A stretch of 64,000 nt of DNA. Origin: Candidatus Heimdallarchaeum aukensis (lineage in GTDB: Archaea > Asgardarchaeota > Heimdallarchaeia > Heimdallarchaeales > Heimdallarchaeaceae). Of this stretch, positions 462-38,290 are shown one piece after another. Made by a program: the position numbers and the translations under genes. The stretch lies in assembly GCA_021513695.1 (NCBI GenBank), contig CP084166.1, positions 1,408,001-1,472,000 on the forward strand, given 5' to 3'. The notes under the pieces were generated by a model. The model saw only the letters and a program-made list of their open reading frames with translations, made no database searches and was not told the DNA's origin. Each line of letters starts with the position of its first letter. Position 1 is the stretch's first letter.

Positions 462-1295
462 TTATTTTTTCAGATATTCTTCAAGTTCGTTATTTATTTC
501 TTTAACATTAGCAACAATTCTATTTTGGCTTTCGCCTTTATTACCTTCAACATTTATTGTAGAAGAGGTTAAAAATAAAGGTTTATAAAAGTCACGTAAC
601 ATTTTTTTACCTTCTCCAAGTAAGCAAGAACAAGTTCCTATATAGTTTCCATCAGAATCTCTTCTTATTCTAAAATAAGTTATATGGCTAGCTCTGCTAC
701 GCCAAACAATTAGGTTTGCTGTTAAGCTTATGTTACTTCGAATAATATGACCTAGGAAAACATTGTCTTTTAAACCGAACTCATAGAGTTTAGGGCTTGG
801 CTTTGCTTCAAAATTTGTCATTAAAAAGATTGTAGTATCATCAGATAATTTTGTATAACGTTTAATTGGTACATCTCTTGTTGATTCTTTTATTATAAAA
901 GTAAACGATTTTTCACGACGTAGAGTGTATGCTGATTGATTTTCTATGATCGCAGAAGTTACATTGATTAATAATTTAGCGTTCTTTTTGTTCAATTCAA
1001 ATCTTTCTACAGATTGAACAGGAACTTTTGAACTAGAAATAAGAGAACAAGCTAGTGTTCCTATCATCTCGTGAGTGACAGGGCCTCTTATTTTACATCC
1101 TGATGGCAAAACAATTACGGGAATATCATTTGGATCAATATTATTTTTTGTAAAAGACTTTGTAGATTTATCAGATTGATAAACTATAAGCTTCACATCG
1201 TCGCTATTCACTGACTCTATGATAGAACTCATAAAACTTAACATTGGCTTGCAGTGATCACATGTTTCAGAATGAATATACAGCTCTAGTTCCAT
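462..1295 (-). CDS. Hypothetical protein with an N-terminal thioredoxin/glutaredoxin-like CxxC motif
   Basis: 277 aa ORF. N-terminal 'SETCDHCKP' CxxC motif typical of a thioredoxin fold. The rest is uncharacterised. Confidence 0.5.
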   Translation of the reverse strand: MELELYIHSETCDHCKPMLSFMSSIIESVNSDDVKLIVYQSDKSTKSFTKNNIDPNDIPVIVLPSGCKIRGPVTHEMIGTLACSLISSSKVPVQSVERFELNKKNAKLLINVTSAIIENQSAYTLRREKSFTFIIKESTRDVPIKRYTKLSDDTTIFLMTNFEAKPSPKLYEFGLKDNVFLGHIIRSNISLTANLIVWRSRASHITYFRIRRDSDGNYIGTCSCLLGEGKKMLRDFYKPLFLTSSTINVEGNKGESQNRIVANVKEINNELEEYLKK

Positions 1296-1398
1296 AGTTA
1301 TCTATTCCTTTTTTTTTAAACAATAAAAGGGTTAAAGTGAATTATTATAAAGATTACTATCAACTTAATTTTTGAGTTGACAGCTATTACACACTTTG

Positions 1399-2250
1399 TT
1401 ACTTTAACAATGCAAAAACAATCCATAATACAGAAATAATTATTGCTGAAAGAATATTAAATAGAGAATACAATTTTAAAGTATCATCAAAGTATAAACT
1501 TTCTATATATTTTCCTATAGAATTTAATCTATTATCTATAGTGTACAATAACGAGCTAATTTTTGTTGTTTCTCTTTCATTTTCTTCCGTTGATGCGAAT
1601 ATATCGATAAAAGCGTGTAACATTTTTTTATCTTGTTCTAATACTAAAGATGAACTAACTGACTCTAATTTTTTATGAAGTTCTTCAATCTGTTCTTTTG
1701 AAAGAACAGGTATTTTCCAAGAATAAGCTTCACTTGCTATTTTTCCAAGATGGTGAGCAATATCATCAATGTATATATCGAATGATACTGGTCGATAATT
1801 TGTTTGATCTATCATTCTAAAAAATTGTAGATCTAAATCCTTTTTATTCTCGTTTTGATAGTATTTTAACGGATCTACTACTAAAGCTATAGCTTTTGGG
1901 AACAAGTTTTGATATGTTCGTTGTGTGTTTTTATCTGTTCCTGATAAGAAACACCCATAACCTGGATGAGTATGCCACCAGCCAACTATGGTTTGTTCAC
2001 TATCTCTCTCTTGTAACTTCATAACAATATCAACTAAAGCTTCATCATCCATTACAACAAAAGTGCTTGTTTGCTGTTGTTTTCCTGTATCAATGTCTGT
2101 AATAATAAGCTGATCAGTATCTTGCTTAACATATCCTATTAGCAAACCAGCTGATTCTTTTGATGTATCCATTCTATCAACAGTTAGTATTTTTGCCAAA
2201 GCAGTTGCAGATAATAAGATTTCAATATCTGAAGGTTCAGTCATTATCAA
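1399..2250 (-). CDS. JAB/MPN (JAMM) metalloprotease-domain protein with a C-terminal transmembrane helix
   Basis: The JAMM motif H-x-H-x7-S-x2-D is present as 'WHTHPGYGCFLSGTD', with an upstream Glu. A hydrophobic C-terminal segment (LFNILSAIIISVLWIVFALL) suggests a membrane anchor. Confidence 0.8.
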   Translation of the reverse strand: MIMTEPSDIEILLSATALAKILTVDRMDTSKESAGLLIGYVKQDTDQLIITDIDTGKQQQTSTFVVMDDEALVDIVMKLQERDSEQTIVGWWHTHPGYGCFLSGTDKNTQRTYQNLFPKAIALVVDPLKYYQNENKKDLDLQFFRMIDQTNYRPVSFDIYIDDIAHHLGKIASEAYSWKIPVLSKEQIEELHKKLESVSSSLVLEQDKKMLHAFIDIFASTEENERETTKISSLLYTIDNRLNSIGKYIESLYFDDTLKLYSLFNILSAIIISVLWIVFALLK

Positions 2251-2321
2251 GTATAAAGTTATAATAGGGGTATAAAATATTTCTCATTTCTTGATTTTAA
2301 AAAATTAATGTAAAGAATAGG

Positions 2322-3359
2322 TTATAATCTTGACAGAATTGGATATTCAGTTAATAGGTAATAGGTCATTTCCTTTAACTTTATTATATCTGGATGTTCT
2401 TTTGAAATGCCTTGGTGTTCAGTTTTTTCTATGTAATCCATCATAGCCCATAGAGCTATATAAAAATCAATAGGAAGGCCTTTAGGGTACATTTCCTCTA
2501 AAGTAGGTACATGAAGTTCTTTTAGGTGAACATTATAACCTTTCAAAAACTTTCTAATATCTTTAGCAGTCTCAACTAAATTATTTGTTTCTCTGTACTC
2601 CAGTATGGATTGTCTCCCAAAAAAAGTTCCCATATCCTCAAATCGGTCATATGATCCCTTCATCCAGAATGTTGGGTCAATTAGTGCGATAGTTATTACT
2701 TGATTATCAGGTGTTATTCTTAGCATTAAATTGCTTTGGTGAAAATCCCCAAAAGCATCGCAACCCCCCATTGAAGAACTAATCATTTGCAGAAATGGTT
2801 TAGATTTCTCTACCACCGTGCTTTCTTGTTCATCGCCGCCAAATATCTTAAAAACTAATCTTCGATGAAGCTCTTCATATATATCTACCATAACTTTTCT
2901 TGTTTGTCCTCCATGAATTACTGCAAGAACATAACCAGCCCAAAAACTCTTATTTCTTACTTCAACAGCATCTTCATAATTAATTCCTGTTATCCCTTCA
3001 TAAGCTATAAAGGGATTATCTCCTAGATTTACATAAATAAATCTTGGAATTCTGACTACAGATCTCGCAGCAAATTTTTTCTCAAGGGTCATTGTGTTTT
3101 TTATTTCTAATAATGCATCATTACTATTTTCTATAAATTTAATAGCAACCTTCTTCTTATGTTCAGTGATTTCTGAAGAGTAATATACATCTACAACGAA
3201 CACTTCTCCAAATCTTCCAGCTGTTTTAAAATATTTAATATTGTTAATGTTGATATCAATTATATCTTTTCCAGTATCTCTATTTGCTTCATCAATAAAG
3301 TAGTATCGGAATTGATTGATTAATTTTAGTAAAAGCTCAGAAGCAACATCAGTATTCAT
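2322..3359 (-). CDS. Protein-kinase-like phosphotransferase (APH/ChoK-type fold)
   Basis: Catalytic-loop-like 'FGDFHQSNLML' followed by 'IDPTF' (the Brenner motif and DFG-equivalent of APH/choline-kinase-type enzymes). There is a paralogue at 36771..37856. Confidence 0.55.
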   Translation of the reverse strand: MNTDVASELLLKLINQFRYYFIDEANRDTGKDIIDININNIKYFKTAGRFGEVFVVDVYYSSEITEHKKKVAIKFIENSNDALLEIKNTMTLEKKFAARSVVRIPRFIYVNLGDNPFIAYEGITGINYEDAVEVRNKSFWAGYVLAVIHGGQTRKVMVDIYEELHRRLVFKIFGGDEQESTVVEKSKPFLQMISSSMGGCDAFGDFHQSNLMLRITPDNQVITIALIDPTFWMKGSYDRFEDMGTFFGRQSILEYRETNNLVETAKDIRKFLKGYNVHLKELHVPTLEEMYPKGLPIDFYIALWAMMDYIEKTEHQGISKEHPDIIKLKEMTYYLLTEYPILSRL

Positions 3360-3583: not shown

Positions 3584-4699
3584 ATGACATCTGTACAAAA
3601 AATAAGTTGGAGCAAGGAAGAAATAAAATTAGTTGCCGACTATTTAGTCAAAATAGCTAATCAGTCTGAAGAACGCAAAATGGAAATCCCAATCGAGAGC
3701 GAAACACTAAAACATGAAAAAGTTGTTGAAGAAGCCAAAATGGGTATTGCAGAAGCATTAATTACAAATGAAATTAATGAAGAAGCTTTAGTGGAAGATC
3801 AAAAAATAAAAGAGATAATGGAATTTTCTCAGATTCCACAGCCCAAAACTGTAAAAAGGATAGAAGAAAAAATACCAGAAGAGAAGATAGATGTTATTGA
3901 AGAGAAGAGATTAGAGTTTGAAGAAGATAAAACAGGCATTGGAGAAATGGGAGAAATTGGTTTTGAAGAAATGGGAGAAATTGGTTTTGAAAAAAGAACA
4001 ATAGAAGGAGAAATTGTACAAGAACCGATTGTAGAGGAAAAAGTAGAAGAACCGATTGTAGAGGAAAAAGTAGAAGAACCGATTGTAGAGGAAAAAGTAG
4101 AAACAGATATTTTTTCACTAGCTAAAGAGATAGGCAAAGCATTAACAGAAACAGAAACAACAGAAGACATATCAATTGTTCAGAAAATAGAAACAGAGGA
4201 TTTGTCCGCTGAAGTTGTTACAGAACCAATTTTAGACAAACCCGTTGAAATAAAACCAGAAGACTTTCCAGAGGATATAAGAGATATAGTTCTAGAAGAA
4301 ATACCAGCTAAACCAGAAAAAGTAGAAATAACTCAAGAAGTGAAAGAAGAAATACCAGCTAAACCAGAAAAAGTAGAAATAACTCAAGAAGTGAAAGAAG
4401 AAATACCAGCTAAACCAGAAAAAGTAGAAATAACTCAAGAAGTGAAAGAAGAAATACCAGCTAAACCAGAAGAACTACTCACTGAGGAACAAATTAGAGC
4501 GAAAAAACGAGAAGAAATTATTCAGAAAATGCTTGCAGAGACAAGAAAGAGAGAACAGGAAGCTGGTGTTAAAGTATATAATATGGGAGAAACAGCTGGA
4601 AAGAAATATTCTGCTGTAATTATTGGTCAAGAATCATCAAAAAACATTAAAACTTGGAAAAAGGTAAGTAAGAAGAAAAAGAAGAAAAAGAAGAAATAG
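3584..4699 (+). CDS. Acidic, low-complexity tandem-repeat protein with a C-terminal poly-lysine tail
   Basis: 371 aa, Glu/Lys/Ile-rich. Three in-frame repeat arrays and a terminal K11 run. A GGTGA-like RBS ('gtgagg') lies 7 nt upstream of the ATG. Confidence 0.6.
   Translation: MTSVQKISWSKEEIKLVADYLVKIANQSEERKMEIPIESETLKHEKVVEEAKMGIAEALITNEINEEALVEDQKIKEIMEFSQIPQPKTVKRIEEKIPEEKIDVIEEKRLEFEEDKTGIGEMGEIGFEEMGEIGFEKRTIEGEIVQEPIVEEKVEEPIVEEKVEEPIVEEKVETDIFSLAKEIGKALTETETTEDISIVQKIETEDLSAEVVTEPILDKPVEIKPEDFPEDIRDIVLEEIPAKPEKVEITQEVKEEIPAKPEKVEITQEVKEEIPAKPEKVEITQEVKEEIPAKPEELLTEEQIRAKKREEIIQKMLAETRKREQEAGVKVYNMGETAGKKYSAVIIGQESSKNIKTWKKVSKKKKKKKKK
3944..3991. repeat. 2 x 24 bp direct in-frame repeat (GEMGEIGFE units)
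   Basis: Exact duplication of 'gaaatgggagaaattggttttgaa', seen in the sequence. Confidence 0.8.
4022..4102. repeat. 3 x 27 bp perfect in-frame tandem repeat (EPIVEEKVE units)
   Basis: 'gaaccgattgtagaggaaaaagtagaa' repeated three times exactly. Confidence 0.85.
4295..4471. repeat. 3.5 x 51 bp perfect in-frame tandem repeat (EEIPAKPEKVEITQEVK units)
   Basis: 'gaagaaataccagctaaaccagaaaaagtagaaataactcaagaagtgaaa' repeated exactly. Identity at nucleotide level implies recent expansion. Confidence 0.85.
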
Positions 4700-4791: not shown

Positions 4792-5868
4792 GTGAATAAA
4801 ATGGAGGATATATCTGGTGTTAATTGGGATAAATTTGTAGGTTTTTGTATTTTCACATTTGAGGAGGAATTAATTTTTGACAAAGTTATAAACACTAAGA
4901 CTTCATTTTCTACGGTCTATCATATTATCGATACTTCTAACAAAATGAGAGACGAACTTAAAAAATCAAAAAAAATATCTGTTGTTAATGATATTTTTAG
5001 AGTTGATTACGAAATTATTTTCAATGTTATTTTTGCTTTCATGTTTAAGCCTGAAACATCAGATGAATTTTCTAATTTATCAATAAAAACAATTAAACAA
5101 ATAATAATTGAGCACTTAAAAGATTACGGGGCAATAGATAAAATGGAACCCGCATCCCAATGTGCGCTAATAAAACGGCTAGGAAATCTTATTGCAGAAC
5201 GCGCTTGTAATCAAATAAAAAACGAATATTTTTCAAAAAGAGCTAAACTTCAAGAAAAAACAGAAACTCAAGCAGTAGTAACTCAACCGCCGGAGGTTGA
5301 ACCAGTAGTCAAAGAGACAGAGGAAATAAGAAGAGAAGAAGAAATAAAGAAAGAAAAAAAACCTAAAGAAACACAAGTTCAAACTTTAGGAAAAGTTGAA
5401 AATCTTTTAGAATTCATAGGAGTAAAAGGAGAAGTAATTTCTGAAGAAGCTGCAAGTGAGGGGACAAAATCTGAACTAACAGAAAAGTTATTGGAAGAAA
5501 CAAAAAGAGATTCAATAAAAAGAGTTCTTTCTTCTGTAATAAAAGGACTAGATGAAAAAACAGGTGTATGTTTTGTTTATACAGAACAGCTTGGACAACT
5601 AGACATTTTATCTTACGGAATGTCAGAAAAACATGCTAATTTTGTTTTAGGTATTTTAAGCAAATATCCAGAAATAATTAAACAAACTCTGTCATCAGCT
5701 AATGAGGAAAAAACTCTAGATGCAGGAGACGGTGTTGTCATCTTAGAAGAAACAGAGAAGGGGATCTTGGTAAGTATCACTAAATACAAAGAAGAGATAC
5801 CAACAATTGTCCAACGTTTAAAAATGGTTAAAATGCTAATAGATCAATTCTTAAAAACATCATTTTAA
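4792..5868 (+). CDS. Hypothetical protein; paralogue 1 of 3 sharing a C-terminal roadblock/LC7-like domain
   Basis: C-terminal ~110 aa (…LDAGDGVVILEETEKGILVSITKYKEE…) aligns with the C-termini of the 5895..6482 and 6560..7579 products. It has the alternating beta-strand pattern of Robl/LC7 (MglB-like) domains. The acidic middle region is low-complexity. Confidence 0.55.
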   Translation: MNKMEDISGVNWDKFVGFCIFTFEEELIFDKVINTKTSFSTVYHIIDTSNKMRDELKKSKKISVVNDIFRVDYEIIFNVIFAFMFKPETSDEFSNLSIKTIKQIIIEHLKDYGAIDKMEPASQCALIKRLGNLIAERACNQIKNEYFSKRAKLQEKTETQAVVTQPPEVEPVVKETEEIRREEEIKKEKKPKETQVQTLGKVENLLEFIGVKGEVISEEAASEGTKSELTEKLLEETKRDSIKRVLSSVIKGLDEKTGVCFVYTEQLGQLDILSYGMSEKHANFVLGILSKYPEIIKQTLSSANEEKTLDAGDGVVILEETEKGILVSITKYKEEIPTIVQRLKMVKMLIDQFLKTSF

Positions 5869-5894: not shown

Positions 5895-6482
5895 CTAATT
5901 GTTTTCTAGTAGAATTGAATTGTTCAAAACTACTTGTTGTACATGCTTCAAACGACGGGCTAGTTCATCAACAGAAGATTTATCTTGAACAATGCCTACA
6001 AGATAATTATCTTTCTCGCAGTTTTCAAGGACAACATAACCAATTCCAGTATCCAATACTTTCACTTCTTCAGTAGAACCTAACAGGTCGTTTATTACAG
6101 GAGGATATTTTCTAAAAATGTTAAGTATCTTTTTTACAACTTCTCTATTCAATGGTCCTCGAACAATTGCTGTTTTTTCTTTACTTTCTATGTGTGGAAC
6201 CAGAGCTGCAGCAGAAAGAGATTTTAGATCATTTGCTATACTGTCAAGTAATGCATCAATTGTTACTTTTATTGCTTTTCTCACTTCTTCTGGTGAAGAT
6301 GTTTGAGACAAGAATTTTTTCAAATATTCTCCTGATTCAATTTTCTTTTTTGAAACTTTAATAGTATTATATGCTATTTCTTCTAACTCTACAAAACTAG
6401 ATTTTTCCGCAGCTTTTCTTTTTCTAGTGGAAATTTTTCCAGCTTGAGATGATTGTTTTTTCGACGGAGACATGCATATCAA
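5895..6482 (-). CDS. Hypothetical protein; paralogue 2 (short form) with a roadblock/LC7-like domain
   Basis: 195 aa. Contains 'VKVLDTGIGYVVLENCEKDNYLVGIVQDKSS', which resembles the roadblock core '[27 protein letters not shown]'. Confidence 0.55.
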   Translation of the reverse strand: MICMSPSKKQSSQAGKISTRKRKAAEKSSFVELEEIAYNTIKVSKKKIESGEYLKKFLSQTSSPEEVRKAIKVTIDALLDSIANDLKSLSAAALVPHIESKEKTAIVRGPLNREVVKKILNIFRKYPPVINDLLGSTEEVKVLDTGIGYVVLENCEKDNYLVGIVQDKSSVDELARRLKHVQQVVLNNSILLENN

Positions 6483-6559: not shown

Positions 6560-7579
6560 ATGAATAGGTTTGGGGTAATGAATAGTTTAGACTTTAAAGA
6601 CATTATAAATCCACTAGTCGCTGTACTTACTTACAATGCAGAAATTGGAAAATGTGAAATAAAAGTAGAGAACGTAAGAACAAACAGAGAATTGGAGGAA
6701 ATTGAGAAAAATTTTAATAGATTATCTTACGATTTTTTAGAATGGGTAAAACGATATAATGAAATTACTATCTTTAAAGGCTCTTTTAGAGCAACATACA
6801 TTAAATTTTACAACATGCTACTTCTCTTTGTTTCAAGGTTGGAAAATTCTGGATTTGAAATAAGACCTGTTATCAAAAAGTTCTTGGAAGAGTTTGCACG
6901 TAAGTTAGTCGATGATTATATCTCAAAAAACCTTTCAAGCTCAAGAATCAAATCTTTTTTAGAGATAGAAAAATTAGATAAAGAGATTCTAAAGTCTGAA
7001 ATTGTTAAGACTTTCACTAGAATGAAAATGGATCCTTCTGCTTTACTAGAAAAATTAAGTAAAGAAAAGAAGGAAGAAGGAGTTCAAGAAATTTATATAC
7101 AAGACCAGAAAAAAAGAAGAAAAGAGATTCTCTCAGAATATCAAAAAAGCGAACAATTTGAACTTGTACCAAGTGTAAACAACATACATATGACTGCAGA
7201 AATTATTGAATCTGCAAATAAAAAAGCAATAATTTCTTTATTATTTACAGTTATAAAAGGATGTAAATCACCATCTGCAGCAGCTTATATCTATCCAATG
7301 GAGGGAAGAACTATTGGAGAACTTTATGCGGGTGATTTAGAAGAACATAAAATTTTATACGTTCTTGAGGCGATTTCTGAACATCCAAAAGCAATAAATG
7401 AAATGCTTCAGTCAAAAGAAGATCTAAAAATGCTTGATGCAGGGATAGTACAAATAATTTTAGAAGATCTAACAGAAGGTAAAATCCTAATTGGAATAAC
7501 AACAAATAAGGATGATGTTTTCAATGTTGGATACAAGATTAAGATTGCTAAATTCATCATCAAGCAATTTGGATTCTAA
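6560..7579 (+). CDS. Hypothetical protein; paralogue 3 with a C-terminal roadblock/LC7-like domain
   Basis: 339 aa. C-terminal 'LKMLDAGIVQIILEDLTEGKILIGITTNKDD' is homologous to the other two paralogues. Confidence 0.55.
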   Translation: MNRFGVMNSLDFKDIINPLVAVLTYNAEIGKCEIKVENVRTNRELEEIEKNFNRLSYDFLEWVKRYNEITIFKGSFRATYIKFYNMLLLFVSRLENSGFEIRPVIKKFLEEFARKLVDDYISKNLSSSRIKSFLEIEKLDKEILKSEIVKTFTRMKMDPSALLEKLSKEKKEEGVQEIYIQDQKKRRKEILSEYQKSEQFELVPSVNNIHMTAEIIESANKKAIISLLFTVIKGCKSPSAAAYIYPMEGRTIGELYAGDLEEHKILYVLEAISEHPKAINEMLQSKEDLKMLDAGIVQIILEDLTEGKILIGITTNKDDVFNVGYKIKIAKFIIKQFGF

Positions 7580-8682: not shown

Positions 8683-9357
8683 ATGGAGCAAAAAACAAGC
8701 TATAACTATGATTTTTGGGGAGCTGAAGCTGAATTAACAAAAATTAAATGGTTTGGTTTAGAAGCTATAAAAAAGGTGAGAATTTCCAAGAAATATAGAA
8801 TTTCTGAAATTGATGAAATGTTAAGAAAAAAAAGAACAATCACTGAGGCAAAGCTTCTAATTACTGCAAAAAAAGCTAAAGTCCAGACCCCATTCGTATA
8901 TGATGTTGATTCTAAAAAACGAACAATAATTATGGAATTTATTGATGGAACTAAAGTCAAAGATTTTCTGAAATCAGAAGAATTTGATAGTAAAGTCAAA
9001 AGGAAATTAATGGAAGAGATAGGAAAAAAAGTAGGTTTACTTCACGCTAATCATCTGATACATGGAGATTTAACTACTAGCAACATACTTCTCAGAAATA
9101 AAAAGTTAGTATTCATTGATTTTGGTCTCGGAAAGTTCTCAAATGAAATTGAGGATAAGGCAGTTGATGTTCTACTTATGAAAAAATGTCTAACTAGTAC
9201 TCACGCAGAGGATAACAAGGAATACTTCATTTCTTTTCAAAAAGGATATGTATCTAGTTACACCAAAGGTGATGAAATATTAAAACGTGCATTAAAAGTA
9301 GAAGCAAGAGGAAGACATCTAAAAGAAGAGGATGTAATTTCAGAGTATATTTTCTAA
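8683..9357 (+). CDS. bud32: KEOPS complex kinase Bud32 (Kae1-associated kinase)
   Basis: Small RIO-like kinase. Catalytic loop 'HGDLTTSNILL' and 'IDFGLG'. Size of 224 aa is typical of archaeal Bud32. Confidence 0.8.
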   Translation: MEQKTSYNYDFWGAEAELTKIKWFGLEAIKKVRISKKYRISEIDEMLRKKRTITEAKLLITAKKAKVQTPFVYDVDSKKRTIIMEFIDGTKVKDFLKSEEFDSKVKRKLMEEIGKKVGLLHANHLIHGDLTTSNILLRNKKLVFIDFGLGKFSNEIEDKAVDVLLMKKCLTSTHAEDNKEYFISFQKGYVSSYTKGDEILKRALKVEARGRHLKEEDVISEYIF

Positions 9358-9362
9358 ATCTA

Positions 9363-10670
9363 CTAACCCCTTTTTCTGATAATTGACAATGAATTTATTT
9401 TTTGTATAATTTTCCATGTTTCTTCTGCATACTTCTCCTGATGTGTCCAATTACCCTCTATTACTCCTTGCTTTGATAATTTTCCTAATTCTTTTCTTAT
9501 TTTTTTGGAAGTCTTACCAACTGGAGCATTAGCTAATTTTGAACCTGGTAAAGGCATAAAAACATGTGCTCTTATTTTTGATCCAATTTTACTAAGGGAT
9601 TTTATTACTTCAATTGATTGGAATTCATCTGCTTCAGTTGCATCTGGTAAACCAAAGATGAAGTCTACAATTGGGATAAAACCAGCATCACGGATATATT
9701 TTATTGCTCTTAAGCCTTCTTCTACTGAATGCCCTCTATGGTACATTCGTAAAATTTTATCACTTCCTGATTGTAATCCAATAGCTATTTTTTTATTTGA
9801 AACTATTTTCTTCAACTTAGTCATAATGCTTTGAGTAACAGTTTCTGGTCTAACTTCTCCAGGAAAAGTTCCAAAAAAGACTCTTTTTATTCCATCAGTA
9901 TTCTTTATTTTTGTTAGTAAATCTATTATTTCCTCTTCATTTGTCTCTTTTGGTTTCTGTGATAAGTATCCAAAGGAATTTGGAGTGATAAACCTTATAT
10001 CATCTAATTTATGTTTTGCCATCCATTGAACTGTCTCCAATATAACATCTGGTGACCTGTGGCGAGTTTTCTTGTTAAATATACTTGGAACTTGACAGAA
10101 TGCACAACCAAAAGAGCAACCTCTTGTAATTTCTAGTGGGGGAAACAACTTTCTTTGTCTTGATATCATAGGGTAATCGTCTAATTTTATTTGTGGAGGA
10201 GAAGGGTTAACAATTAGCTTTTCTTTATCTTCTGCTAGATAAGCTATGCCAGGTGTTGTTTCCAACTTGTCATTATTTAACCATTTTTCCAAAAAAAGAG
10301 AGAATGATAATTCTCCTTCTCCGATAAAAGCATAATCAAATCCAAGCCTTAAAGTGCTCAAGGGATCTCCAGTAGGATGACTTCCTCCAGCAACAAATAT
10401 AATTTTATTCAGATCTTGAGTTTTTAAATTAGAATACAGATCATCCATACTAGAATATATTTTTTCTAGTTGTGCTGTTCTAAAAGAGAAAGCAAATATC
10501 ACTTTATCATATCTTTCTAAATAAGATTGAATCTTCTTGCTGTCAACATCCGATTCAAGTAAAATGTCAAACCCATCTAGTTTTTCATTTTGATCGATTG
10601 AGGCAACTAATGGGGTAATGCTATAGAAATTCTTTTTTTCAAGACTGAAAATAAGAGCTGAATTATTCAA
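9363..10670 (-). CDS. Radical SAM protein with an N-terminal B12-binding-like domain
   Basis: 'RGCSFGCAFCQ' CxxxCxxC cluster motif. Upstream 'FVAGGSHPTGDP' resembles a cobalamin-binding domain. Overlaps the Kae1 stop by 4 nt, which suggests an operon. Confidence 0.8.
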   Translation of the reverse strand: MNNSALIFSLEKKNFYSITPLVASIDQNEKLDGFDILLESDVDSKKIQSYLERYDKVIFAFSFRTAQLEKIYSSMDDLYSNLKTQDLNKIIFVAGGSHPTGDPLSTLRLGFDYAFIGEGELSFSLFLEKWLNNDKLETTPGIAYLAEDKEKLIVNPSPPQIKLDDYPMISRQRKLFPPLEITRGCSFGCAFCQVPSIFNKKTRHRSPDVILETVQWMAKHKLDDIRFITPNSFGYLSQKPKETNEEEIIDLLTKIKNTDGIKRVFFGTFPGEVRPETVTQSIMTKLKKIVSNKKIAIGLQSGSDKILRMYHRGHSVEEGLRAIKYIRDAGFIPIVDFIFGLPDATEADEFQSIEVIKSLSKIGSKIRAHVFMPLPGSKLANAPVGKTSKKIRKELGKLSKQGVIEGNWTHQEKYAEETWKIIQKINSLSIIRKRG

Positions 10671-11671
10671 TTTTCATTTCTCCAGTTAACGACTACATCT
10701 TCAACCCTATAATGTTGGTCAATAATTGTTTCTTTTAGAGGAGTAGAATATCCTTGGTTGTACATTATGAGTCCTAACCATGCTATCATTAATCCATTAT
10801 CAATCGCTAAACTCGGTTCTAATCCAAAGAATCTAGCACCATGTGATTCTGCCATAACTTTAAGCATTGCTTTCAATCGATTGTTTGAAGCAACGCCACC
10901 ACATACTAATACTTCATTCTTTTTAGTATGTGCTAAAGCTCTTTCAGTAACTTCAACTAGCATTGCAAAAACCGTTTCTTGCAAACTGTAAGAGAGATCC
11001 TCAAGAGTATATTCCTTTTTTTTGAGTAGCTTAGAAATGTGTGTGAGAATTCCAGAAAAAGACACATCCATTCCTTTTATAACATAAGGGATTGGAATAT
11101 ATTTTGTTCCATTTTCTGCTAATAGCTCGATTACACGACCCATTGGAGCTTTTTTATCGCTTAAACCCGCGTTTCTTCCAAAAACATCCAAACAATTTCC
11201 AACAGGAATATCAATAGTTTCTCCAAAAACGCGATATCTGCCTTCGCTAAAAGCAATTATTTGTGTGTTACCTCCTGATACATACAACACTACAGGATCA
11301 TCCATGTTTCCAACTAGTCGTCCTATCTCCACGTGAGCTATAGGATGATTTACGCCAACTAACGGTTTTTTGTATTTTAGCGCTAGTGTCCTTGCAGCAA
11401 CTGCACCAACCCTAAGGCAGGGACCCAACCCTGGACCCTTTGTAAAAGAGATAATATCTATATTGTCCATAGTAAGTTTAGATGTTTTAAGCGCTTCACT
11501 GATTACTTCTGGAATATTTTTGGCATGGAATTCAGAAGCTTCACGAGGGTGAATACCAGAACCTAAGGGGGGTTTGTAGGTTCTTCTAACATTTGCAAGT
11601 ATATTTCCGTTATTATCTATTATTCCTACACCTAATTTGTCAGCAGAACTTTCAATGCCAAGAGATAACAT
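10667..11671 (-). CDS. kae1: tRNA N6-adenosine threonylcarbamoyltransferase Kae1/TsaD
   Basis: N-terminal 'LGIESSADKLGVGII', His-containing metal-binding motifs, 334 aa. A canonical Kae1/TsaD family signature. Confidence 0.9.
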   Translation of the reverse strand: MLSLGIESSADKLGVGIIDNNGNILANVRRTYKPPLGSGIHPREASEFHAKNIPEVISEALKTSKLTMDNIDIISFTKGPGLGPCLRVGAVAARTLALKYKKPLVGVNHPIAHVEIGRLVGNMDDPVVLYVSGGNTQIIAFSEGRYRVFGETIDIPVGNCLDVFGRNAGLSDKKAPMGRVIELLAENGTKYIPIPYVIKGMDVSFSGILTHISKLLKKKEYTLEDLSYSLQETVFAMLVEVTERALAHTKKNEVLVCGGVASNNRLKAMLKVMAESHGARFFGLEPSLAIDNGLMIAWLGLIMYNQGYSTPLKETIIDQHYRVEDVVVNWRNEN

Positions 11672-12772: not shown

Positions 12773-14017
12773 TTATATTGTTGTTGGAAACTTTGCATAA
12801 GACCTAAACTCTATCCAATCTTCTAAATGTCTATTGATTATATTTTCAATTTCATCCTGGTCTAGTTTTCTTGCAACTGATTCATCTGATGTTAATAGTG
12901 CCATAATATATCTTTCATTTTTGAACTCTAAATCTCGTAATATAAAAATCTCATTTGTTTTTTCTTCGTCGTCTAAAACATATCTTCTTATTCTTAAGAA
13001 AGGTTCTCTCATATTTGCTATCGTTTCTATTGCTTCATAGTATGCATTATGAGATAATTCTTCTAGCTTTTCATTTTTTGAGTACTGGGCAAAACAGATG
13101 TTACTTCTGAAATCATATAAACCAAAAAATTCTGCATTTAAAGTTTCAGCTACTTGTTTTGATGCATTTGCGATATAATCTTGAATCAAACTTATGTTTC
13201 TAAATATGTGCGAGAATGCACCCAATATAGAAGAGCGTATATGAACACTTGTTCTAAAGATTCCTCTTGCAGGATCAAAGGTGGGGACATTAGAATGTAA
13301 ATATTGGACCATTGAGCCAAAGATGGAATTAGCTTTCTCACTTAAAACAAAATCAGGATCAGATTTATGAAAGAATATGGTCCATGGAACATCTAATTTA
13401 AGTTTTTGAGTGACATTAACAATCTGTTTTAAATATTCAAAGCTTTCTTCATATCTATCTTCAGCTTGAACATCTACTACATAGATAATTGTGTCTGTTC
13501 CAATAAAGTACTGTTCAGGATTGTTTAGATAGTCATCTCTATATATTTTCTGTCCTCCTAATTCATGTAGATGAATATCAAGACCAAAAACCTCTAATTT
13601 TCCACGTAAAAGTCCTCTTGTTGGCGTTAGTGCATTCAACTTTTGAAAAAGTAATGAAAAAGCTCCTCTATGTTTCAAGGCTATAGAAAGTGAGGTTTTT
13701 CCTACATTATCAATTCCTGCTAAAATAATTTTAGCTCCAGAGGTTATTTTTTCAGTTTTTTCTACCAATAAAAGTTTGCTTGCAGCTATCCAACTATCTA
13801 TACGCTCTTTTGGAAAAAGTTTTGACAGATCACTATAGTGCTTATTCCACTCTTTTGCTAATTTTTCAATTGTTACCAAACCAAATTTTTCTAGTGATTT
13901 CACCTCACTTTCTCTAATATCTAAGAGAGCTATTACTGGCAAATCAGCTAAATTATCTTCTTTCCTATAATCCTCTTTCAATAGCTTTTCTTTTATATCT
14001 AACACTTTTTTCACCAA
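12773..14017 (-). CDS. Rag/Gtr-like small GTPase with an N-terminal extension and a C-terminal roadblock-type domain
   Basis: G1 is 'AGIDNVGKTS' and the switch II region is 'ELGGQ'. G4 is 'HKSD', the HKxD variant characteristic of RagA/Gtr1 rather than NKxD. The C-terminal ~150 aa contain 'FLRIRRYVLDDEEKTNEIFIL', which resembles the roadblock 'LTFLRIRSKKNEIMV'. Confidence 0.6.
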   Translation of the reverse strand: MVKKVLDIKEKLLKEDYRKEDNLADLPVIALLDIRESEVKSLEKFGLVTIEKLAKEWNKHYSDLSKLFPKERIDSWIAASKLLLVEKTEKITSGAKIILAGIDNVGKTSLSIALKHRGAFSLLFQKLNALTPTRGLLRGKLEVFGLDIHLHELGGQKIYRDDYLNNPEQYFIGTDTIIYVVDVQAEDRYEESFEYLKQIVNVTQKLKLDVPWTIFFHKSDPDFVLSEKANSIFGSMVQYLHSNVPTFDPARGIFRTSVHIRSSILGAFSHIFRNISLIQDYIANASKQVAETLNAEFFGLYDFRSNICFAQYSKNEKLEELSHNAYYEAIETIANMREPFLRIRRYVLDDEEKTNEIFILRDLEFKNERYIMALLTSDESVARKLDQDEIENIINRHLEDWIEFRSYAKFPTTI

Positions 14018-14193
14018 ATTCTGCGAAGTAATTACACGTAAGAGCGCTTGAAATATAGTTGTCTAACTATCAAAATAAGTATTTTGTTTCTATTACTAAG
14101 GAGATATAAAAAAATTAGATAAAAAATAAACTAAGGAAAATAAAAATTATAAAAAAAAAATAGAACTTACGACGGAAAAGTTAAAAAGATTTT

Positions 14194-16203
14194 ATGTTTT
14201 TTACGGATAAACAGCAACGAATGGAGAAAAGAAAATTGCGTGCACGTAGATTAAACAAAATACTGTTGATTACATTATTATTAATTACCACTTTTTCGGT
14301 AAGCGTATTAGGAAGAGCATATTTTTCTTCAGTTAGTGATTTTGGAAAGACAGACCTAAGTTATTCGAAAAATAATATCGTAGCTTTTGACACCAATGAA
14401 CCCATAATTGACGGGGATTTGGAATCTTATGAAGGAGAATGGGCTAATGCTACAGTTTATAGTAATATAATAGATGGGATAAATTATACTATTACCTTAA
14501 AAGCCAATGAGACTCATCTTTTCTTTGGTATAAGTTATGAGACTAATTTGTTTGTCTCACTCACAGAAACTAACGCAAGCATTCCTCACACTTGGTATGC
14601 AATTGTCTTTGACAGTAACTTTGACAAAGAATTTGGAACAGAACTTGTTCCTGAAGATACTATTTTGTTTAACTATCAAGAAAAAGATGCAACTGACGCT
14701 ACTTTGAATGGTACAGAAACTAATTCATTGGCTTTGGATGAAGATTTAGGAGGAGAAGATAACACAATAGGTGCTATTCAAACAGATCTTTTTGTTGAAG
14801 AATACACTGTAACAATAGAAATCGCTAAAGAATTAAACTCAGGAGATAAGGAAGGGAATGATATAGCCCTAAACCCAAGCGATGCTATTCTATTTGCTTT
14901 AATTCCATTTGCTAACCATACGGATGTATTCAATAATACCGAGGTTCCTTCATTAGAATGGAATACTTTAAGATTAGAACCCACACAAGAATTCTACACA
15001 TATATAGAAAATACCGAAGATCTGTCAGTAGTAACCTACGTTTCAGATTCAGTAAGAACAAAGAGAGTAGAGTTTAATTCAATAGGAAATATGTTAGAAG
15101 CCTATCAATTAAATTCTCAATTAGCAAATAAGGATAATTTTGAGATTACAACTGAAAATCTCAACGATGTTGATCTATTTATTATGGCAGGAAATCAAAA
15201 ATCCCTAACTTCTAGCCAAATATCTGTTTTACGTTCATATTTGACAAATGGAGGAAGTATACTCCTTATTGCAGATGAAGTGAAAAATGAAAGTTCAATT
15301 AATGAATTCTTACGAATGTTCAATATGGAACTATACAATTCAACACTCTACTCAAACAATACTGCCATCAATGAATCTCTAACTTTTGATCAAACAACAC
15401 TTGCACAACTACAATATTTACAAGAAGATAGTGCTTTTACAGAAACAGAATTCAGTAATATCTTTTACACAGGTACAGCAATAAAAAACATTTCTGCCTA
15501 TGGAGAAACCATTTTATTTGGACAAGATGCTGACTTATATCCGATCCTTTCAAAAGAAGGAGAATTCTTCATCAATTTAGGTGAAAAAACAGGATACAAT
15601 AGCACAGAAGATATTGCGATAAACAATGTGACTTTGCAAACTGCTTTAGAACTAAAATATGGAGGAAAAATGATTGTTTCTGCCTCAGCTGACATGTATA
15701 ATTCATCAAATCTTGTATTTGGTTCAAATAAGATGTTACTGTTGAAAGAGATACAATGGTTACTTAACTTCAGATTCAGAATAAGCTATGAAAACTTTAA
15801 CGTCCCTCAGACAAAAGTTAAAGAGGGAAATCCAATAGAAATGAACATTAGCGTTACAGGAGATAACGATACAGTTCTAGCAAATGTTAAAGTACAAGGA
15901 AGAGTGCTTGTTCTTAAATCAGTTGTTTCTTCTGTTGAACTTAATGCTTCAGAAAACAAAATCGATTTCTATGGACAAATTGTTCCTGAAACTAAAGCTT
16001 CATGGGTTGACATTGAGATACTGATGCACAAAAGAGGATATGGATATAACTACACTGAACTAGTAGAAGTTTTAATTGAAAAACAAATAGAAATTCCTAT
16101 AGCGGTAGATTACGTGTCTTTAATTGTTTTTATAGCTTCCATTGGATTAGCTATAATAGGAATGATAACTATAAGAAGACACAAAATTCAAAAAGAAGAA
16201 TAA
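14194..16203 (+). CDS. Large secreted or surface protein with an N-terminal signal anchor and a C-terminal transmembrane anchor
   Basis: 669 aa. N-terminal hydrophobic segment. Many N-x-S/T sequons. C-terminal helix 'VSLIVFIASIGLAIIGMITI' followed by a basic stop-transfer. The internal segment 'LFIMAGNQKSLTSSQISVLRSYLTNGGSILLIADE' is GldG/ABC-auxiliary-like. Confidence 0.5.
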   Translation: MFFTDKQQRMEKRKLRARRLNKILLITLLLITTFSVSVLGRAYFSSVSDFGKTDLSYSKNNIVAFDTNEPIIDGDLESYEGEWANATVYSNIIDGINYTITLKANETHLFFGISYETNLFVSLTETNASIPHTWYAIVFDSNFDKEFGTELVPEDTILFNYQEKDATDATLNGTETNSLALDEDLGGEDNTIGAIQTDLFVEEYTVTIEIAKELNSGDKEGNDIALNPSDAILFALIPFANHTDVFNNTEVPSLEWNTLRLEPTQEFYTYIENTEDLSVVTYVSDSVRTKRVEFNSIGNMLEAYQLNSQLANKDNFEITTENLNDVDLFIMAGNQKSLTSSQISVLRSYLTNGGSILLIADEVKNESSINEFLRMFNMELYNSTLYSNNTAINESLTFDQTTLAQLQYLQEDSAFTETEFSNIFYTGTAIKNISAYGETILFGQDADLYPILSKEGEFFINLGEKTGYNSTEDIAINNVTLQTALELKYGGKMIVSASADMYNSSNLVFGSNKMLLLKEIQWLLNFRFRISYENFNVPQTKVKEGNPIEMNISVTGDNDTVLANVKVQGRVLVLKSVVSSVELNASENKIDFYGQIVPETKASWVDIEILMHKRGYGYNYTELVEVLIEKQIEIPIAVDYVSLIVFIASIGLAIIGMITIRRHKIQKEE

Positions 16204-26967: not shown

Positions 26968-27618
26968 TTATTCAAGTGGTATAGAAACTACCATTATGTC
27001 TTTTTCTTCTACTTCATCTTTGACTATTTTCTTTATGACATCTTTTGCTAATTCTTCCATCTCTTCAATTGTTAAATCTTCTTTGTACTTTTCTTTAAGA
27101 ATGGAAATTGCTTCTGTATCTCCTTCTCCTATTGCTTTTGCTTTTACAGAGATTACTCCGCCACCAGGGTCTACATAATACAGAGATGATCCTGTATCAT
27201 CTACTCCTCCTATCAACAATCCTACTCCAAAAGGCCTTACTCCTCCTTGTTGAGTGTAAAGTTGGCAGTAATCTCCAATTTTTGTAGATAATCCCTTAAT
27301 ATCTGTTGGGAGATCATAGGTCATTCTAAATATTTGAGCTTCTAGTCTTGCTCTTGAAATTAGTACTCTCCCATCTGCAGCTACTCCTGCAAAGGTTGCA
27401 TATACTTTTTCATCTATTTTATGTACTTTGGCATCTGGTTCGTTTAAATCAACGACTCTTAATAAGCCAGCTAGTACAACACCATTTTTACTCTTTATAC
27501 CTACTGCTATGCTTCCTCGTCTTACGGATTCTCTTGCATATTCTACTTGTATCAATCGTCCTTCAGGACTATACATGATTGAAGTTCTATCATATCCCAT
27601 TGATTGTGGACCTAACAT
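26968..27618 (-). CDS. psmA: Proteasome alpha subunit
   Basis: The N-terminal 'YDRTSIMYSPEGRLIQVEYA' alpha-subunit signature is present. 216 aa. Confidence 0.9.
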   Translation of the reverse strand: MLGPQSMGYDRTSIMYSPEGRLIQVEYARESVRRGSIAVGIKSKNGVVLAGLLRVVDLNEPDAKVHKIDEKVYATFAGVAADGRVLISRARLEAQIFRMTYDLPTDIKGLSTKIGDYCQLYTQQGGVRPFGVGLLIGGVDDTGSSLYYVDPGGGVISVKAKAIGEGDTEAISILKEKYKEDLTIEEMEELAKDVIKKIVKDEVEEKDIMVVSIPLE

Positions 27619-27619
27619 T

Positions 27620-28306
27620 TTATAACTCCTCCAATATTTTCTTTATCTCTTCTTCAGTTAACCAACGGATTCCATCTTTGTTTACAACCAATGCATCCAT
27701 ACCATTTCCAGTTGCTGTATCTCTGCTAATTGAAGTTGATAGTGCTCTTAGTCCTAGTTTAATTGCTTCATCTTCTGTAAGACCTTCTTTCCAGAAAGCT
27801 TCTAATACACCATAAGAGAAGAGCGAACCTGAACCTGTTGAAGCATAGTCTTCATCAATTATTGCACCAGAAGCATCCAAATTATAAACGTGAGGACCAT
27901 ATTTATCTAGACCACATACTAACATTGCAACATAGAACGGCATGTAAGATCTAAACTGTTCATATAGTATAGAAGCAAGAAGATTTCCTGCCATTTTTGT
28001 TGTTGGGGGATAACCTCTGTTTAGTTCATATAGATTTAAGTTAGCTTTAGTAAGGTTAACTAAATATTGGGCATCAGCTACTAAACCAGCGATCGTTGCA
28101 ACAGTATAATCATTTAATTGGTGGAGCTTTTTAGCTCTCTTCGAAGCAACGAAGGTTCCTGCAGAAGCTCGTCTATCAGTAGCAACAACAACACCATCTT
28201 TAAATCTAAGAGCAACAGTAGTTGTCCCTTTCATTGGATTTTCAAATGGATTTTGTTGTCCATAATTATTCATCATATTCATTTTCAAACCTCTATTTTT
28301 TTTCAC
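27620..28306 (-). CDS. psmB: Proteasome beta subunit (with propeptide)
   Basis: 'GTTTVALRFKDGVVVATD' contains the catalytic Thr after the propeptide. It lies immediately upstream of psmA with a 1 nt spacer. Confidence 0.9.
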   Translation of the reverse strand: MKKNRGLKMNMMNNYGQQNPFENPMKGTTTVALRFKDGVVVATDRRASAGTFVASKRAKKLHQLNDYTVATIAGLVADAQYLVNLTKANLNLYELNRGYPPTTKMAGNLLASILYEQFRSYMPFYVAMLVCGLDKYGPHVYNLDASGAIIDEDYASTGSGSLFSYGVLEAFWKEGLTEDEAIKLGLRALSTSISRDTATGNGMDALVVNKDGIRWLTEEEIKKILEEL

Positions 28307-31004: not shown

Positions 31005-31383
31005 AGGGTGTGCGGGAATACCCCTGATTCTGTTCGGAAGTCATTTACATGAAACTTCTTAGCAACATTCATCTATGCGCTTTACCCGACTTAGAAAGTC
31101 CTATTTAAGCTTGCACCACGATGTATGATCGTTTCATCGCTCCCTCTTTACTCCTCAATAACTTCATAGGACACCCTATGTGTCATATCATTGTCAACGT
31201 AAAGAGGACGTGTCGTTTCTATTTCAGGGACCACGTTCTCACGTGATGGGTTTGCACCCATATCGCTTGTTAGGTGTCAGGAGGTTCCTCAGGTTTAACC
31301 CGAAAGTTGCTCTCCCGCTCACCCTAAGAGTACTATGTTTTTATCAAAAATAAAGATAGCTGTCACAGATTGCTGACATTCTC
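31005..31383 (-). ncRNA. GC-rich non-coding segment downstream of the tnpB remnant; candidate omega-RNA/right-end element, or another structured RNA
   Basis: About 380 bp with clearly higher G+C than the flanks and no ORF in any frame. It lies directly 3' of the tnpB C-terminal fragment on the same strand. Confidence 0.3.
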
Positions 31384-37889: not shown

Positions 37890-38290
37890 AAAAGCTTTAT
37901 GTGTTTACTATGGGGTAGTGTCTAGTTTTTATACCACCTCCTAGGCAAAAAGGAATTAAGGGGTGGGTGTCCAAGGCTCTGGTGGGGGCGAATGAAGTTA
38001 TAATAAAGCATAAAGAGAGTAAGAAAACCAGAGAGATGATCGGAGCCATAAATAGCTCGAATAGAACAGGTACAGTGGAGAACAGAGTGAAACCAACGAT
38101 AGGTCTTAAGACTGGCATTAAAGCGCTCAACATATGACCGTATACCACCACTAACAACAAGATGATTAAGCCCGAGACGAGATAGATAGGATAGAATAGC
38201 AGGAACCAGCATCAGTGACGACGATACGTGGTTTTGAGGCCCAACAGCGGAACCAATAACGAAAAGTTAGTAAGCACTCGAGGACACTAC
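37890..38290. mobile_element. Degenerate insertion-sequence fragment (3' part of a DDE/rve-type transposase gene)
   Basis: A higher-GC patch encoding a transposase C-terminus in two overlapping frames. It abuts the 5'-truncated surface-protein gene. Confidence 0.5.
37922..38212 (-). pseudogene. DDE (integrase-core, IS481/IS3-like) transposase C-terminal remnant
   Basis: 'VERFNASLKTY...YNFIRPHQSLGHPP' matches the 'ERFNrtLK ... YNxxRPHxxLg' C-terminal signature of rve-type DDE transposases. The catalytic N-terminal portion is missing. Confidence 0.6.

Follow-up and report, generated by a model that had tools for sequence, protein, structure and literature searches.

Among archaea, the Heimdallarchaeia are the closest known relatives of eukaryotes. 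In a 64-kb stretch of DNA from one of them, Candidatus Heimdallarchaeum aukensis (the window), genes for a kinase-like protein, a JAMM-type protease and a thioredoxin-like protein follow one another on the minus strand. This arrangement raises the question of whether the three genes form one unit and, if they do not, which of them belong together and what they might do.

Gene order across Heimdallarchaeia

The three co-directional open reading frames that the sequence-only reading had described are present, at 2322-3359 (345 aa, kinase), 1399-2250 (283 aa, JAMM) and 462-1295 (277 aa, thioredoxin-like), and their spacing is as short as claimed, with 71 or 77 bp between the kinase and JAMM genes, depending on the JAMM start codon, and 103 bp between the JAMM and thioredoxin-like genes. 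The JAMM frame encodes 283 aa from a TTG or 281 aa from an ATG at 2244; the ATG is the probable start, and the NCBI protein (P0001) is the 281-aa form.

We examined gene order at 41 species-level loci. The kinase gene and a gene for a tail-anchored JAMM protein are adjacent on the same strand in 31 of these, with a gap of -29 to 106 bp, and in 4 more the two genes lie within 1.8 kb of each other, split only by a pilus-type ATPase gene. One of the remaining 6 loci is cut by a contig end and five are without JAMM; the linkage is kept in 35 of the 40 informative loci. The adjacency persists in lineages where the kinase has diverged to ~30% identity, and because the flanking genes vary by lineage, inherited gene order alone does not account for it. 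In the Heimdallarchaeaceae, the pair occupies a stable syntenic position among housekeeping genes throughout the family. We found nothing in the literature on a tail-anchored or membrane-bound archaeal JAMM protein or on a kinase-JAMM pair, and the best reading of these data is that the kinase and the membrane-tethered isopeptidase make up a conserved, previously undescribed two-gene module.

The third gene (462-1295, minus strand) had been taken as part of one conserved trio, and here the comparison gives a different answer. Its place beside the pair is limited to the two species of the genus Heimdallarchaeum (H. endolithica is locus L010), and JAMM-thioredoxin adjacency is found in 1 of the 41 loci. 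At all remaining Heimdallarchaeaceae loci, JAMM is followed downstream by a gene for an F420 ligase or a pterin-binding protein. The thioredoxin-like gene of another genome of the family, GCA_030603365, is on the same contig as the pair but ~50 kb away, and synteny is kept only with its own 3′ neighbours. Furthermore, the 103-bp spacer holds a hairpin and a TATA-like sequence of its own. All of this argues against a three-gene operon whose thioredoxin-type redox product would regulate both kinase and protease, an arrangement that would fit the shared strand, the short spacers and the identical gene order in H. endolithica but that we consider very improbable. We conclude that the gene is an unrelated recent neighbour that arrived via rearrangement in the genus Heimdallarchaeum, and that the unit of study is the kinase-JAMM pair and not the trio.

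The 277-aa product itself has the thioredoxin-type N-terminus that had been proposed for it, in which a thioredoxin fold carries CxxC where helix 1 begins, and this is fused to a C-terminal PLD-like/TrmB-C-like domain. Unlike thioredoxin/glutaredoxin-like proteins, it gives no Pfam thioredoxin match, and unlike PLD-fold domains such as the TrmB C-terminal domain and NucT, it has no canonical HKD motif (H-x-K-x4-D), reading H183-I-I-R-S-N instead. Neither the protein nor its profile matched an entry in the PDB, and the combination of a thioredoxin with a PLD-like domain was not found among solved structures.

Co-transcription of the genes, which had been suggested from their spacing, is possible, but the kinase-JAMM spacer carries a TATA-like hexamer (TTTATA, 2271-2276, minus strand) 32 nt upstream of the JAMM ATG. 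The pattern TTTAWA begins at -33 to -30 in 19 of 22 Heimdallarchaeaceae kinase-JAMM spacers, where 1.5 would be expected from shuffled sequences. Such a box at a fixed position suggests that the JAMM gene has its own promoter and is transcribed separately.

The JAMM protein and its C-terminal segment

The protein encoded at 1399-2250 has a JAMM domain at approximately residues 11-148, a linker of ~110 residues of unknown fold and a C-terminal anchor. It matches Pfam JAB at 7.4e-14 (52 bits, above the curated cut-off of 22.5) and Prok-JAB at 32.2 bits (threshold 25), and it has 52 homologues, nearly all of ~280 aa and nearly all from Heimdallarchaeota. The zinc site, H93-T-H95-x7-S103-G-T-D106 (codons at 1933-1974, minus strand), is intact as had been noted: E32, H93, H95, S103 and D106 are invariant in an alignment of 19 homologues (A2), and a regular expression for the zinc/catalytic motif E-x(n)-H-x-H-x7-S-x2-D matches 35 of 35 orthologues.

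The best solved relative of the JAMM domain is CsRpn11 of Candidatus Caldiarchaeum subterraneum (PDB 6FJV/6FJU; PMC6043591), with a match to 6fjv at E 5.5e-23 (85 bits, 38% identity over 133 residues). The two share the JAMM zinc motif and an Ins-1 region that aligns without a gap, and both are without Ins-2. CsRpn11, however, is a soluble protein whose gene belongs to a ubiquitin/E1/E2/RING operon, whereas the Heimdallarchaeum protein continues through its linker to an anchor and has an APH-fold kinase, not ubiquitin-system genes, as its conserved neighbour. Next in score are the eukaryotic enzymes Rpn11/PSMD14 (72 bits, E 5.6e-19) and CSN5 (48-56 bits), with which it shares the MPN+ catalytic core; we saw neither an MPN- partner of the Rpn8 or CSN6 type nor lid-anchoring helices nor a PCI complex context, and hydropathy marks the archaeal protein as membrane-tethered, in contrast to both. 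Judged by these scores, the nearest kin of the JAMM domain are the Rpn11-type enzymes, which are specific for ubiquitin.

Two further affinities that had been proposed did not stand up. An AMSH-like, ESCRT-linked enzyme had been suggested by functional analogy, as a JAMM deubiquitinase at a membrane, but AMSH/STAMBP, at ~43 bits, scores below Rpn11, carries a zinc-binding Ins-2 and is recruited via MIT and SH3-binding modules. In the Heimdallarchaeum protein, the JAMM domain starts at the N-terminus, no MIT or other domain was found ahead of the core, a tail anchor is present instead, and no ESCRT gene lies nearby. SAMP processing was also proposed, and the protein does not resemble a SAMP desampylase of the HvJAMM1 type, scoring 20.2 bits against a cut-off of 130 with model NF041370. 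A role as a prepilin-processing enzyme was considered and dropped because the pilin-like leaders at locus L009 are without Gly where one would be expected, and because the known prepilin peptidases belong to the polytopic aspartic proteases.

The membrane anchor that had been claimed is at the extreme C-terminus. The only hydrophobic segment of the protein is at residues 263-281, with a Kyte-Doolittle 19-residue mean of 2.59; the runner-up, at 1.20, corresponds to helix 1 of the JAMM fold, and 36 of 5000 shuffled sequences reached 2.59. The anchor codons (~residues 262-282) are at 1405-1467 on the minus strand and are followed by a single Lys. This tail is hydrophobic in all 35 orthologues examined, with means of 2.0-3.05. 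Since the sole hydrophobic segment is the last 21 residues, at the C-terminus and with no N-terminal signal sequence, we class the protein as tail-anchored; its insertion into the membrane is a prediction from hydropathy. This lack of a signal sequence, combined with the single residue behind the anchor, should leave the JAMM domain on the cytoplasmic side. The linker and tail used as a query gave no significant match in the PDB.

The kinase and its other genomic neighbours

The 345-aa protein encoded at 2322-3359 (KIN1) is predicted to have a kinase fold with an APH-type helical C-lobe, and its classification as an APH/ChoK-type kinase, which agrees with the original suggestion, comes from structure prediction together with a full set of catalytic residues. 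These are the glycine loop (G48/G51), K74, E85, D205-x-H-x-x-N210, D228 and D238-R-x-E-D242. The beta3 Lys (K74), the alphaC Glu (E85), the D205...N210 loop and the metal-binding Asp (D228) are conserved in all KIN1-type sequences, and Phe replaces the His of the canonical H-G-D. KIN1 scores 14 bits with Pfam APH, below the cut-off of 23.2, while a distant family member (P0154) reaches 43.6 bits against the same threshold. Searches of the PDB with the KIN1 sequence and with the family profile gave no match. The structural neighbours of the predicted fold are mostly small-molecule kinases, and identity to APH(9)-Ia, methylthioribose kinase, aminopropanol kinase, LicA and LxmK is only 11-16%. 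KIN1 belongs to a tiny, isolated family of 117 representatives. The long members of this family (459-556 aa) include no kinase-JAMM fusion, and their extra regions have no Pfam match.

Two features of the surroundings of the pair were overlooked in the sequence-only reading: a conserved linkage to 2-phosphoglycerate-kinase-like (2PGK-like) genes and, in one clade, the presence of type IV filament assembly genes. The window contains two divergently transcribed 2PGK-like genes. Gene a (45605-46534, minus strand) encodes a P-loop protein that scores 259 bits with NCBIfam NF003259, below the cut-off of 343, and gene b (46678-47568, plus strand) encodes an ATP-cone and P-loop protein that scores 238 bits with the same model and matches Pfam ATP-cone. 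Orthologues of both adjoin the kinase/JAMM genes in other Heimdallarchaeia lineages. Of the 41 loci, 13 have such genes beside the kinase (at L037, ~4.8 kb from it), and a metagenome locus, L008, adds one more. The kinase-2PGK linkage is also kept in five lineages without an adjacent JAMM gene, and thus the kinase could be metabolic and only loosely tied to JAMM.

Role of the pair, and a paralogue of the kinase

The reading that we favour, tentatively and at somewhat less than an even chance, is that a competent APH/ChoK-fold kinase and, downstream of it, a competent tail-anchored Rpn11-type JAMM isopeptidase form a two-gene module of Heimdallarchaeia with a putative membrane-proximal role. 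It builds on the folds and catalytic residues of the two proteins, the tail anchor and the conserved adjacency demonstrated above; that the JAMM substrate is ubiquitin is something we infer. Held at the cytoplasmic face by its tail anchor, the JAMM domain would cut a Gly-terminated ubiquitin or ubiquitin-like tail off proteins close to the membrane, or off precursors. We would place the kinase in the same pathway, with JAMM itself, the JAMM substrate, a small molecule or a lipid as its target, and it may work alongside the two 2PGK-like proteins encoded near the pair in other lineages.

Heimdallarchaeia have ubiquitin and ESCRT-I/II proteins that bind ubiquitin (PMC9192718), and ubiquitin, E2 and UEV proteins have been experimentally documented in Heimdallarchaeote AB_125 (PMC9192718), whose genome carries the kinase-JAMM pair (L030). 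The Rpn11-like JAMMs of Caldiarchaeum and other Asgard archaea are usually found within ubiquitin/E1/E2/RING operons (PMC6043591). Against our reading, no ubiquitin, E1, E2, RING or ESCRT gene was found near the pair in the 64-kb window and ~630 kb of related loci (~690 kb), and a tblastn search for ubiquitin, which has limited sensitivity, found none in these 691 kb. Around the gene for P0051, the closest JAMM relative that has no anchor, there were no ubiquitin genes, a result uninformative for this question. The predominance of small-molecule kinases among the kinase's structural neighbours, the survival of the kinase-2PGK linkage without an adjacent JAMM gene, and the conserved TATA-like box in the spacer also weigh against it.

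Several of these same observations would fit a metabolic or lipid module, in which the kinase and the 2PGK-like proteins phosphorylate small molecules or lipid head-group precursors and JAMM is a membrane amidohydrolase or peptidase with a substrate other than ubiquitin. The kinase-2PGK adjacency is recurrent, also at loci without JAMM, and in the window genes for an ARMT1-like phosphatase and a DAGK-type lipid kinase come after the 2PGK-like pair. Nevertheless, the JAMM domain is much nearer to the ubiquitin-specific Rpn11-type enzymes than to other JAMMs, and all characterised JAMM enzymes, to our knowledge, cut peptide or isopeptide bonds after a ubiquitin-like tail, and so we consider a metabolic module unlikely. 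Defence against viruses, of the CBASS (Cap3) or Bil type with a JAB isopeptidase, would account for the match of the JAMM protein to CBASS JAB models (43 bits) and its weak matches to the NCBIfam Cap3 and cap2_3 models. These scores, however, fall below those for Rpn11-type enzymes, the kinase has no PADLOC match, no CD-NTase, E1/E2 or effector gene is adjacent, and the stable housekeeping synteny across the family is unlike that of a defence island. We rejected this identity after the PADLOC test and regard it as extremely improbable.

The filament genes suggest another possibility, that the kinase, JAMM and the 2PGK-like proteins control the assembly or turnover of an ArlI/ArlJ-type complex and that the module has moved away from it in the Heimdallarchaeaceae. 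One clade has the module interspersed among ArlI/ArlJ-like type IV filament genes: at L008, L039, L043, L044 (on the same contig as L009) and L046 it lies between an ArlI-like ATPase gene and two half-ArlJ platform genes, in at least three internal gene orders, and at L009 pilin-like genes come next. The tail anchor would put JAMM beside the membrane platform. This arrangement is confined to the one clade, however, with no T2SSE/T2SSF genes within 8 kb in ~30 other loci and no T2SSE/T2SSF homologue in the window, and the association is absent from a survey of archaeal type IV pili (PMC4858521). We therefore think a general filament function quite unlikely, although for the membrane-proximal pair that we favour the interleaving means that filament machinery may be a target in that clade.

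A more ambitious proposal, which we regard as doubtful, is that the kinase-JAMM pair and its two 2PGK-like partners form a hitherto unrecognised membrane-proximal signalling module of Heimdallarchaeia that couples phosphorylation to the removal of ubiquitin from membrane proteins or type IV filament machinery. If it were true, the module would be an independently designed archaeal counterpart of phospho-regulated membrane deubiquitination, as carried out by AMSH at eukaryotic endosomes. A membrane-tethered Rpn11-type enzyme with a kinase neighbour is a tractable candidate for ubiquitin removal at Heimdallarchaeia membranes, since both proteins are small and removal of 22 residues would make JAMM soluble. 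If the substrate is not ubiquitin, the pair is still a lineage-specific module with an isolated kinase family.

The window also contains the second kinase-like gene and the nearby insertion sequence (IS) remnant that had been reported. The remnant (37922-38212, minus strand) encodes a 96-aa fragment of an rve-type integrase core, with a match to Pfam rve_3 at E 6.7e-5 and 23.0 bits, below the cut-off of 26.5. The kinase-like gene (36771-37856, minus strand) encodes a divergent paralogue of KIN1 (KIN2; 27% identity, E 4e-29) in which the glycine-loop glycines are missing and Asn replaces the metal-binding Asp228, so that KIN2 is possibly a pseudokinase.

A conserved kinase-JAMM gene pair

ORF calling placed three minus-strand genes at exactly the coordinates proposed by the sequence-only reading, which had treated them as a trio: a 345-aa kinase (KIN1, 2322-3359), a JAMM/MPN+ metalloprotease (1399-2250; 283 aa from a TTG start, annotated as a 281-aa product from the ATG at 2244), and a 277-aa thioredoxin-PLD protein (462-1295). 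The kinase-JAMM spacer is 71/77 bp, and the JAMM-thioredoxin spacer is 103 bp. When we scanned the kinase alignment against one genome per species, we obtained 41 kinase loci, which come from Heimdallarchaeia-type Asgard archaea plus one genome labelled Kariarchaeota and one Sifarchaeum. JAMM lies directly downstream of the kinase on the same strand in 31 loci (gap -29 to 106 bp), four have a single ATPase gene between the two (~1.7 kb), one contig ends before the JAMM position, and five loci have no JAMM gene. On a rough neighbour-joining tree, these five kinases fall outside the clades of JAMM-linked kinases, with one (locus L037) sister to the Heimdallarchaeaceae KIN1 group. The adjacency persists at ~30% kinase identity with wholly different flanking genes, and it thus reflects more than inherited gene order alone. 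From these comparisons, we conclude that two genes form a conserved pair, one for an APH-fold kinase and one for a tail-anchored Rpn11-type JAMM, both of them active-looking.

The trio, by comparison, is not a unit. The thioredoxin-PLD gene adjoins the pair in 1 of the 41 loci, that of H. endolithica (L010), and its homologues are found elsewhere. Three other Heimdallarchaeaceae have the kinase gene immediately upstream of JAMM, followed by F420-ligase and pterin-binding genes. In GCA_030603365, the thioredoxin-PLD gene is on the same contig ~50 kb from the pair, with a GH57 gene before it and two small Cys-rich genes, AMP phosphorylase, and Cgi121 after it. Both the window and H. endolithica have these 3′-side neighbours after the gene, so a rearrangement breakpoint lies in the 103-bp spacer.

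The sequence-only reading had also judged the gene spacing compatible with co-transcription. Kinase and JAMM may be co-transcribed, yet the arrangement can be explained without this. A TATA-like hexamer (TTTAWA) starts 30-33 nt before the JAMM start codon in 19 of the 22 Heimdallarchaeaceae spacers, versus 1.5 expected from shuffles (window 2271-2276; equivalent sites in loci L010-L035). Similar boxes precede the kinase gene by ~30 nt. Such boxes before both genes, in the related sequences compared, are suggestive of a separate promoter for each, with leaderless or short-leader mRNAs.

Predicted properties of the two enzymes

The JAMM protein scores 52 bits against Pfam JAB (cut-off 22.5), and the closest solved structures are Caldiarchaeum CsRpn11 (E 5.5e-23; 38% identity over 133 aligned residues, with the Ins-1 region ungapped) and then yeast and human Rpn11, CSN5, and AMSH. 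Judged by sequence, it is a JAMM/MPN+ family member of the Rpn11-like branch whose best solved relatives are ubiquitin-specific enzymes. CBASS Cap3-type models score it at 24-43 bits. An earlier suggestion of SAMP processing was not borne out, as the haloarchaeal desampylase model, whose cut-off is 130 bits, gives 20. Operon context is a feature of archaeal Rpn11-like enzymes, whereas the JAMM here is without that context; it likewise has none of the AMSH-specific features, and we found no ESCRT gene in the window, which leaves the AMSH-like, ESCRT-linked analogy first proposed unsupported.

The intact catalytic motif that had been described holds, since E32, H93, H95, S103, and D106 are unchanged in all 19 homologues aligned. 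The membrane anchor that had been described with it is predicted by hydropathy, as a C-terminal tail: residues 263-281 form the sole hydrophobic stretch, with a Kyte-Doolittle mean of 2.59 and a single Lys after it, and the next-best value, 1.20, belongs to helix 1 of the JAMM fold. Such a stretch qualifies as a putative tail anchor by the usual definition, and would leave the catalytic domain in the cytoplasm. The zinc motif is kept in 35/35 JAMM orthologues, as is the hydrophobic tail. A search with the 110-residue linker from JAMM core to anchor detected no relative.

For the kinase, the Pfam APH match is marginal (E 0.043), and neither the protein alone nor a 20-sequence profile matched any solved structure. 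Only 117 relatives were found by profile among 1.84 billion representative proteins, so the family is tiny and isolated, but one distant member clears the Pfam APH threshold (43.6 bits) and provides a transitive sequence link to APH. An AlphaFold2 model built from the family alignment was confident (pLDDT 91.6, pTM 0.87), and its top Foldseek matches were APH(9)-Ia, 25-hydroxysteroid kinase, APH(2''), methylthioribose kinase, and LicA choline kinase, which settles the choice among RIO, Kdo, and APH in favor of APH. The family alignment conserves the glycine loop (G48, G51), K74, E85, the catalytic loop D205-x-H-x-x-N210, and D228, together with a D238-R-x-E-D242 motif that resembles D-R-x-x-D in APH enzymes, and on these grounds we predict an active kinase.

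The paralogue that had been noticed at 36771-37856 (-), KIN2, is a true one (27% identity, E 4e-29). It is without the glycine-loop glycines and has Asn where KIN1 has D228, so it may be a pseudokinase. The IS remnant reported beside it is also there, as a 96-aa rve-type integrase core fragment at 37922-38212 (E 6.7e-5, below the Pfam cut-off).

Possible roles of the pair

We tentatively favor a reading in which JAMM sits at the membrane facing the cytoplasm and would remove a ubiquitin or ubiquitin-like tail from membrane-proximal substrates, with the kinase acting in the same pathway, although we put this at somewhat short of an even chance. We looked for ubiquitin, E1, E2, RING, and ESCRT genes in the 64-kb window and found none, and a tblastn search with human ubiquitin, which has limited sensitivity, gave no match in 691 kb of window and fetched loci. 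In Heimdallarchaeote AB_125, ubiquitin, an E2, and a ubiquitin-binding UEV-Vps23-Vps28 protein have been shown experimentally (PMC9192718). The AB_125 genome has the kinase-JAMM pair (L030), so a ubiquitin substrate is available in the family, where ubiquitin occurs without genomic linkage to the pair.

Alternatively, the pathway could be one of small-molecule or lipid phosphorylation, where JAMM would act on a substrate other than ubiquitin. This is unlikely, even though the structural neighbours of the kinase favor it, as does a linkage of the kinase, independent of JAMM, to 2-phosphoglycerate-kinase-like (2PGK-like) genes. Outside Heimdallarchaeaceae, two divergently oriented genes for paralogous P-loop plus ATP-cone proteins accompany kinase-JAMM; their products score 184-259 bits as 2PGK-like, below the cut-off of 343. 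The window orthologues (45605-46534, -, and 46678-47568, +) are 43 kb from the pair, and in two Heimdallarchaeaceae genomes (L026, L034) one such gene is again directly upstream of the kinase. Slimmer still is the chance that the pair serves type IV filament machinery as an accessory module, which would be compatible with our preferred reading. In one clade (loci L008, L039, L043, L046, and L044, which shares its contig with L009), the module is interleaved between an ArlI/FlaI-like ATPase gene and a pair of genes for the N- and C-halves of an ArlJ/UpsF-like platform, in at least three different internal gene orders. Interleaved filament, kinase, JAMM, and 2PGK-like regions span 2086-10209 in L008, 5151-16346 in L009, and 7995-16040 in L046. 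We saw this arrangement in that clade alone, and a search of our window for ArlI/ArlJ-like homologues found none. A redox-regulated trio is contradicted by the comparative data and seems very improbable; an anti-virus defence system, contradicted by both the comparative data and PADLOC, is about as improbable.

In the searchable literature, including the H. aukensis genome paper and a survey of archaeal type IV pili, we found neither a tail-anchored JAMM nor this kinase-JAMM pair described. With its ubiquitin substrate putative, the pair offers a clean candidate, and a testable one, for deubiquitination at the membrane in the archaea most closely related to eukaryotes.

Other features of the window

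The thioredoxin-PLD-like fusion family is Heimdallarchaeaceae-specific (25 clusters, 54-75% identity). C12-x-x-C15 is nearly invariant in its alignment; the canonical H-x-K-x4-D motif was not found in the window protein, and the PLD-like domain has a strongly conserved but non-canonical G-H-I-I-R-D-N...N-L-I-x-W-R-x-R-x-x-H. Two small Cys-rich/zinc-ribbon ORFs (~47 and ~59 aa; 68-448, +) are kept downstream of this gene in other Heimdallarchaeaceae. Divergent from the kinase gene, 3584-4699 (+) encodes an acidic 371-aa protein with tandem repeats (VEEPIVEEK x3 and EIPAKPEKVEITQEVKE x3) and 10 lysines in a row near its C-terminus; in Heimdallarchaeaceae it is syntenic, though poorly conserved. 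Its neighbours at 4792-5868 (+), 5895-6482 (-), and 6560-7579 (+) have in common a ~120-residue C-terminal domain that belongs to no Pfam family, and throughout Heimdallarchaeaceae the first two keep their place upstream of the kinase. In the interleaved filament clade, a conserved coiled-coil protein of ~140 aa comes after, as do pilin-like genes in L009.

The window is archaeal, with an archaeal RNase P RNA and a G+C of ~30%, and its JAMM and kinase-like proteins match NCBI proteins of Candidatus Heimdallarchaeum aukensis at 100% identity. Within 8683-11671, the genes for a small kinase of Bud32/RIO type (224 aa) and for Kae1/TsaD (334 aa) bracket a B12-binding radical SAM gene; in the related genome L010, the KEOPS partner Cgi121 lies immediately outside the window start. 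The 2PGK-like pair is followed, within 45605-49458, by an ARMT1-like damage-control phosphatase and a DAGK/YegS-type lipid kinase. Proteasome alpha and beta genes are side by side at 26968-28306 (-), a 581-aa protein with a Zc3h12a-like NYN ribonuclease domain is encoded at 29185-30930 (-), and archaeal RNase P RNA is at 31008-31322 (-), beside tRNA-Arg. A bacterial-type lipid enzyme, PlsY-type glycerol-3-phosphate acyltransferase, is encoded in this archaeal genome at 62110-62823 (-). A Gtr1/RagA-Arf-type small GTPase (414 aa) adjoins a 669-aa protein matching the IFT52 GIFT-domain at 12773-16203, and both are eukaryote-like signature proteins. The Rpb5 homologue at 56267-56932 (+), with a C-terminal Rpb5 domain after an Mrr_cat/restriction-endonuclease-like N-terminal domain, resembles the long, eukaryote-type Rpb5.
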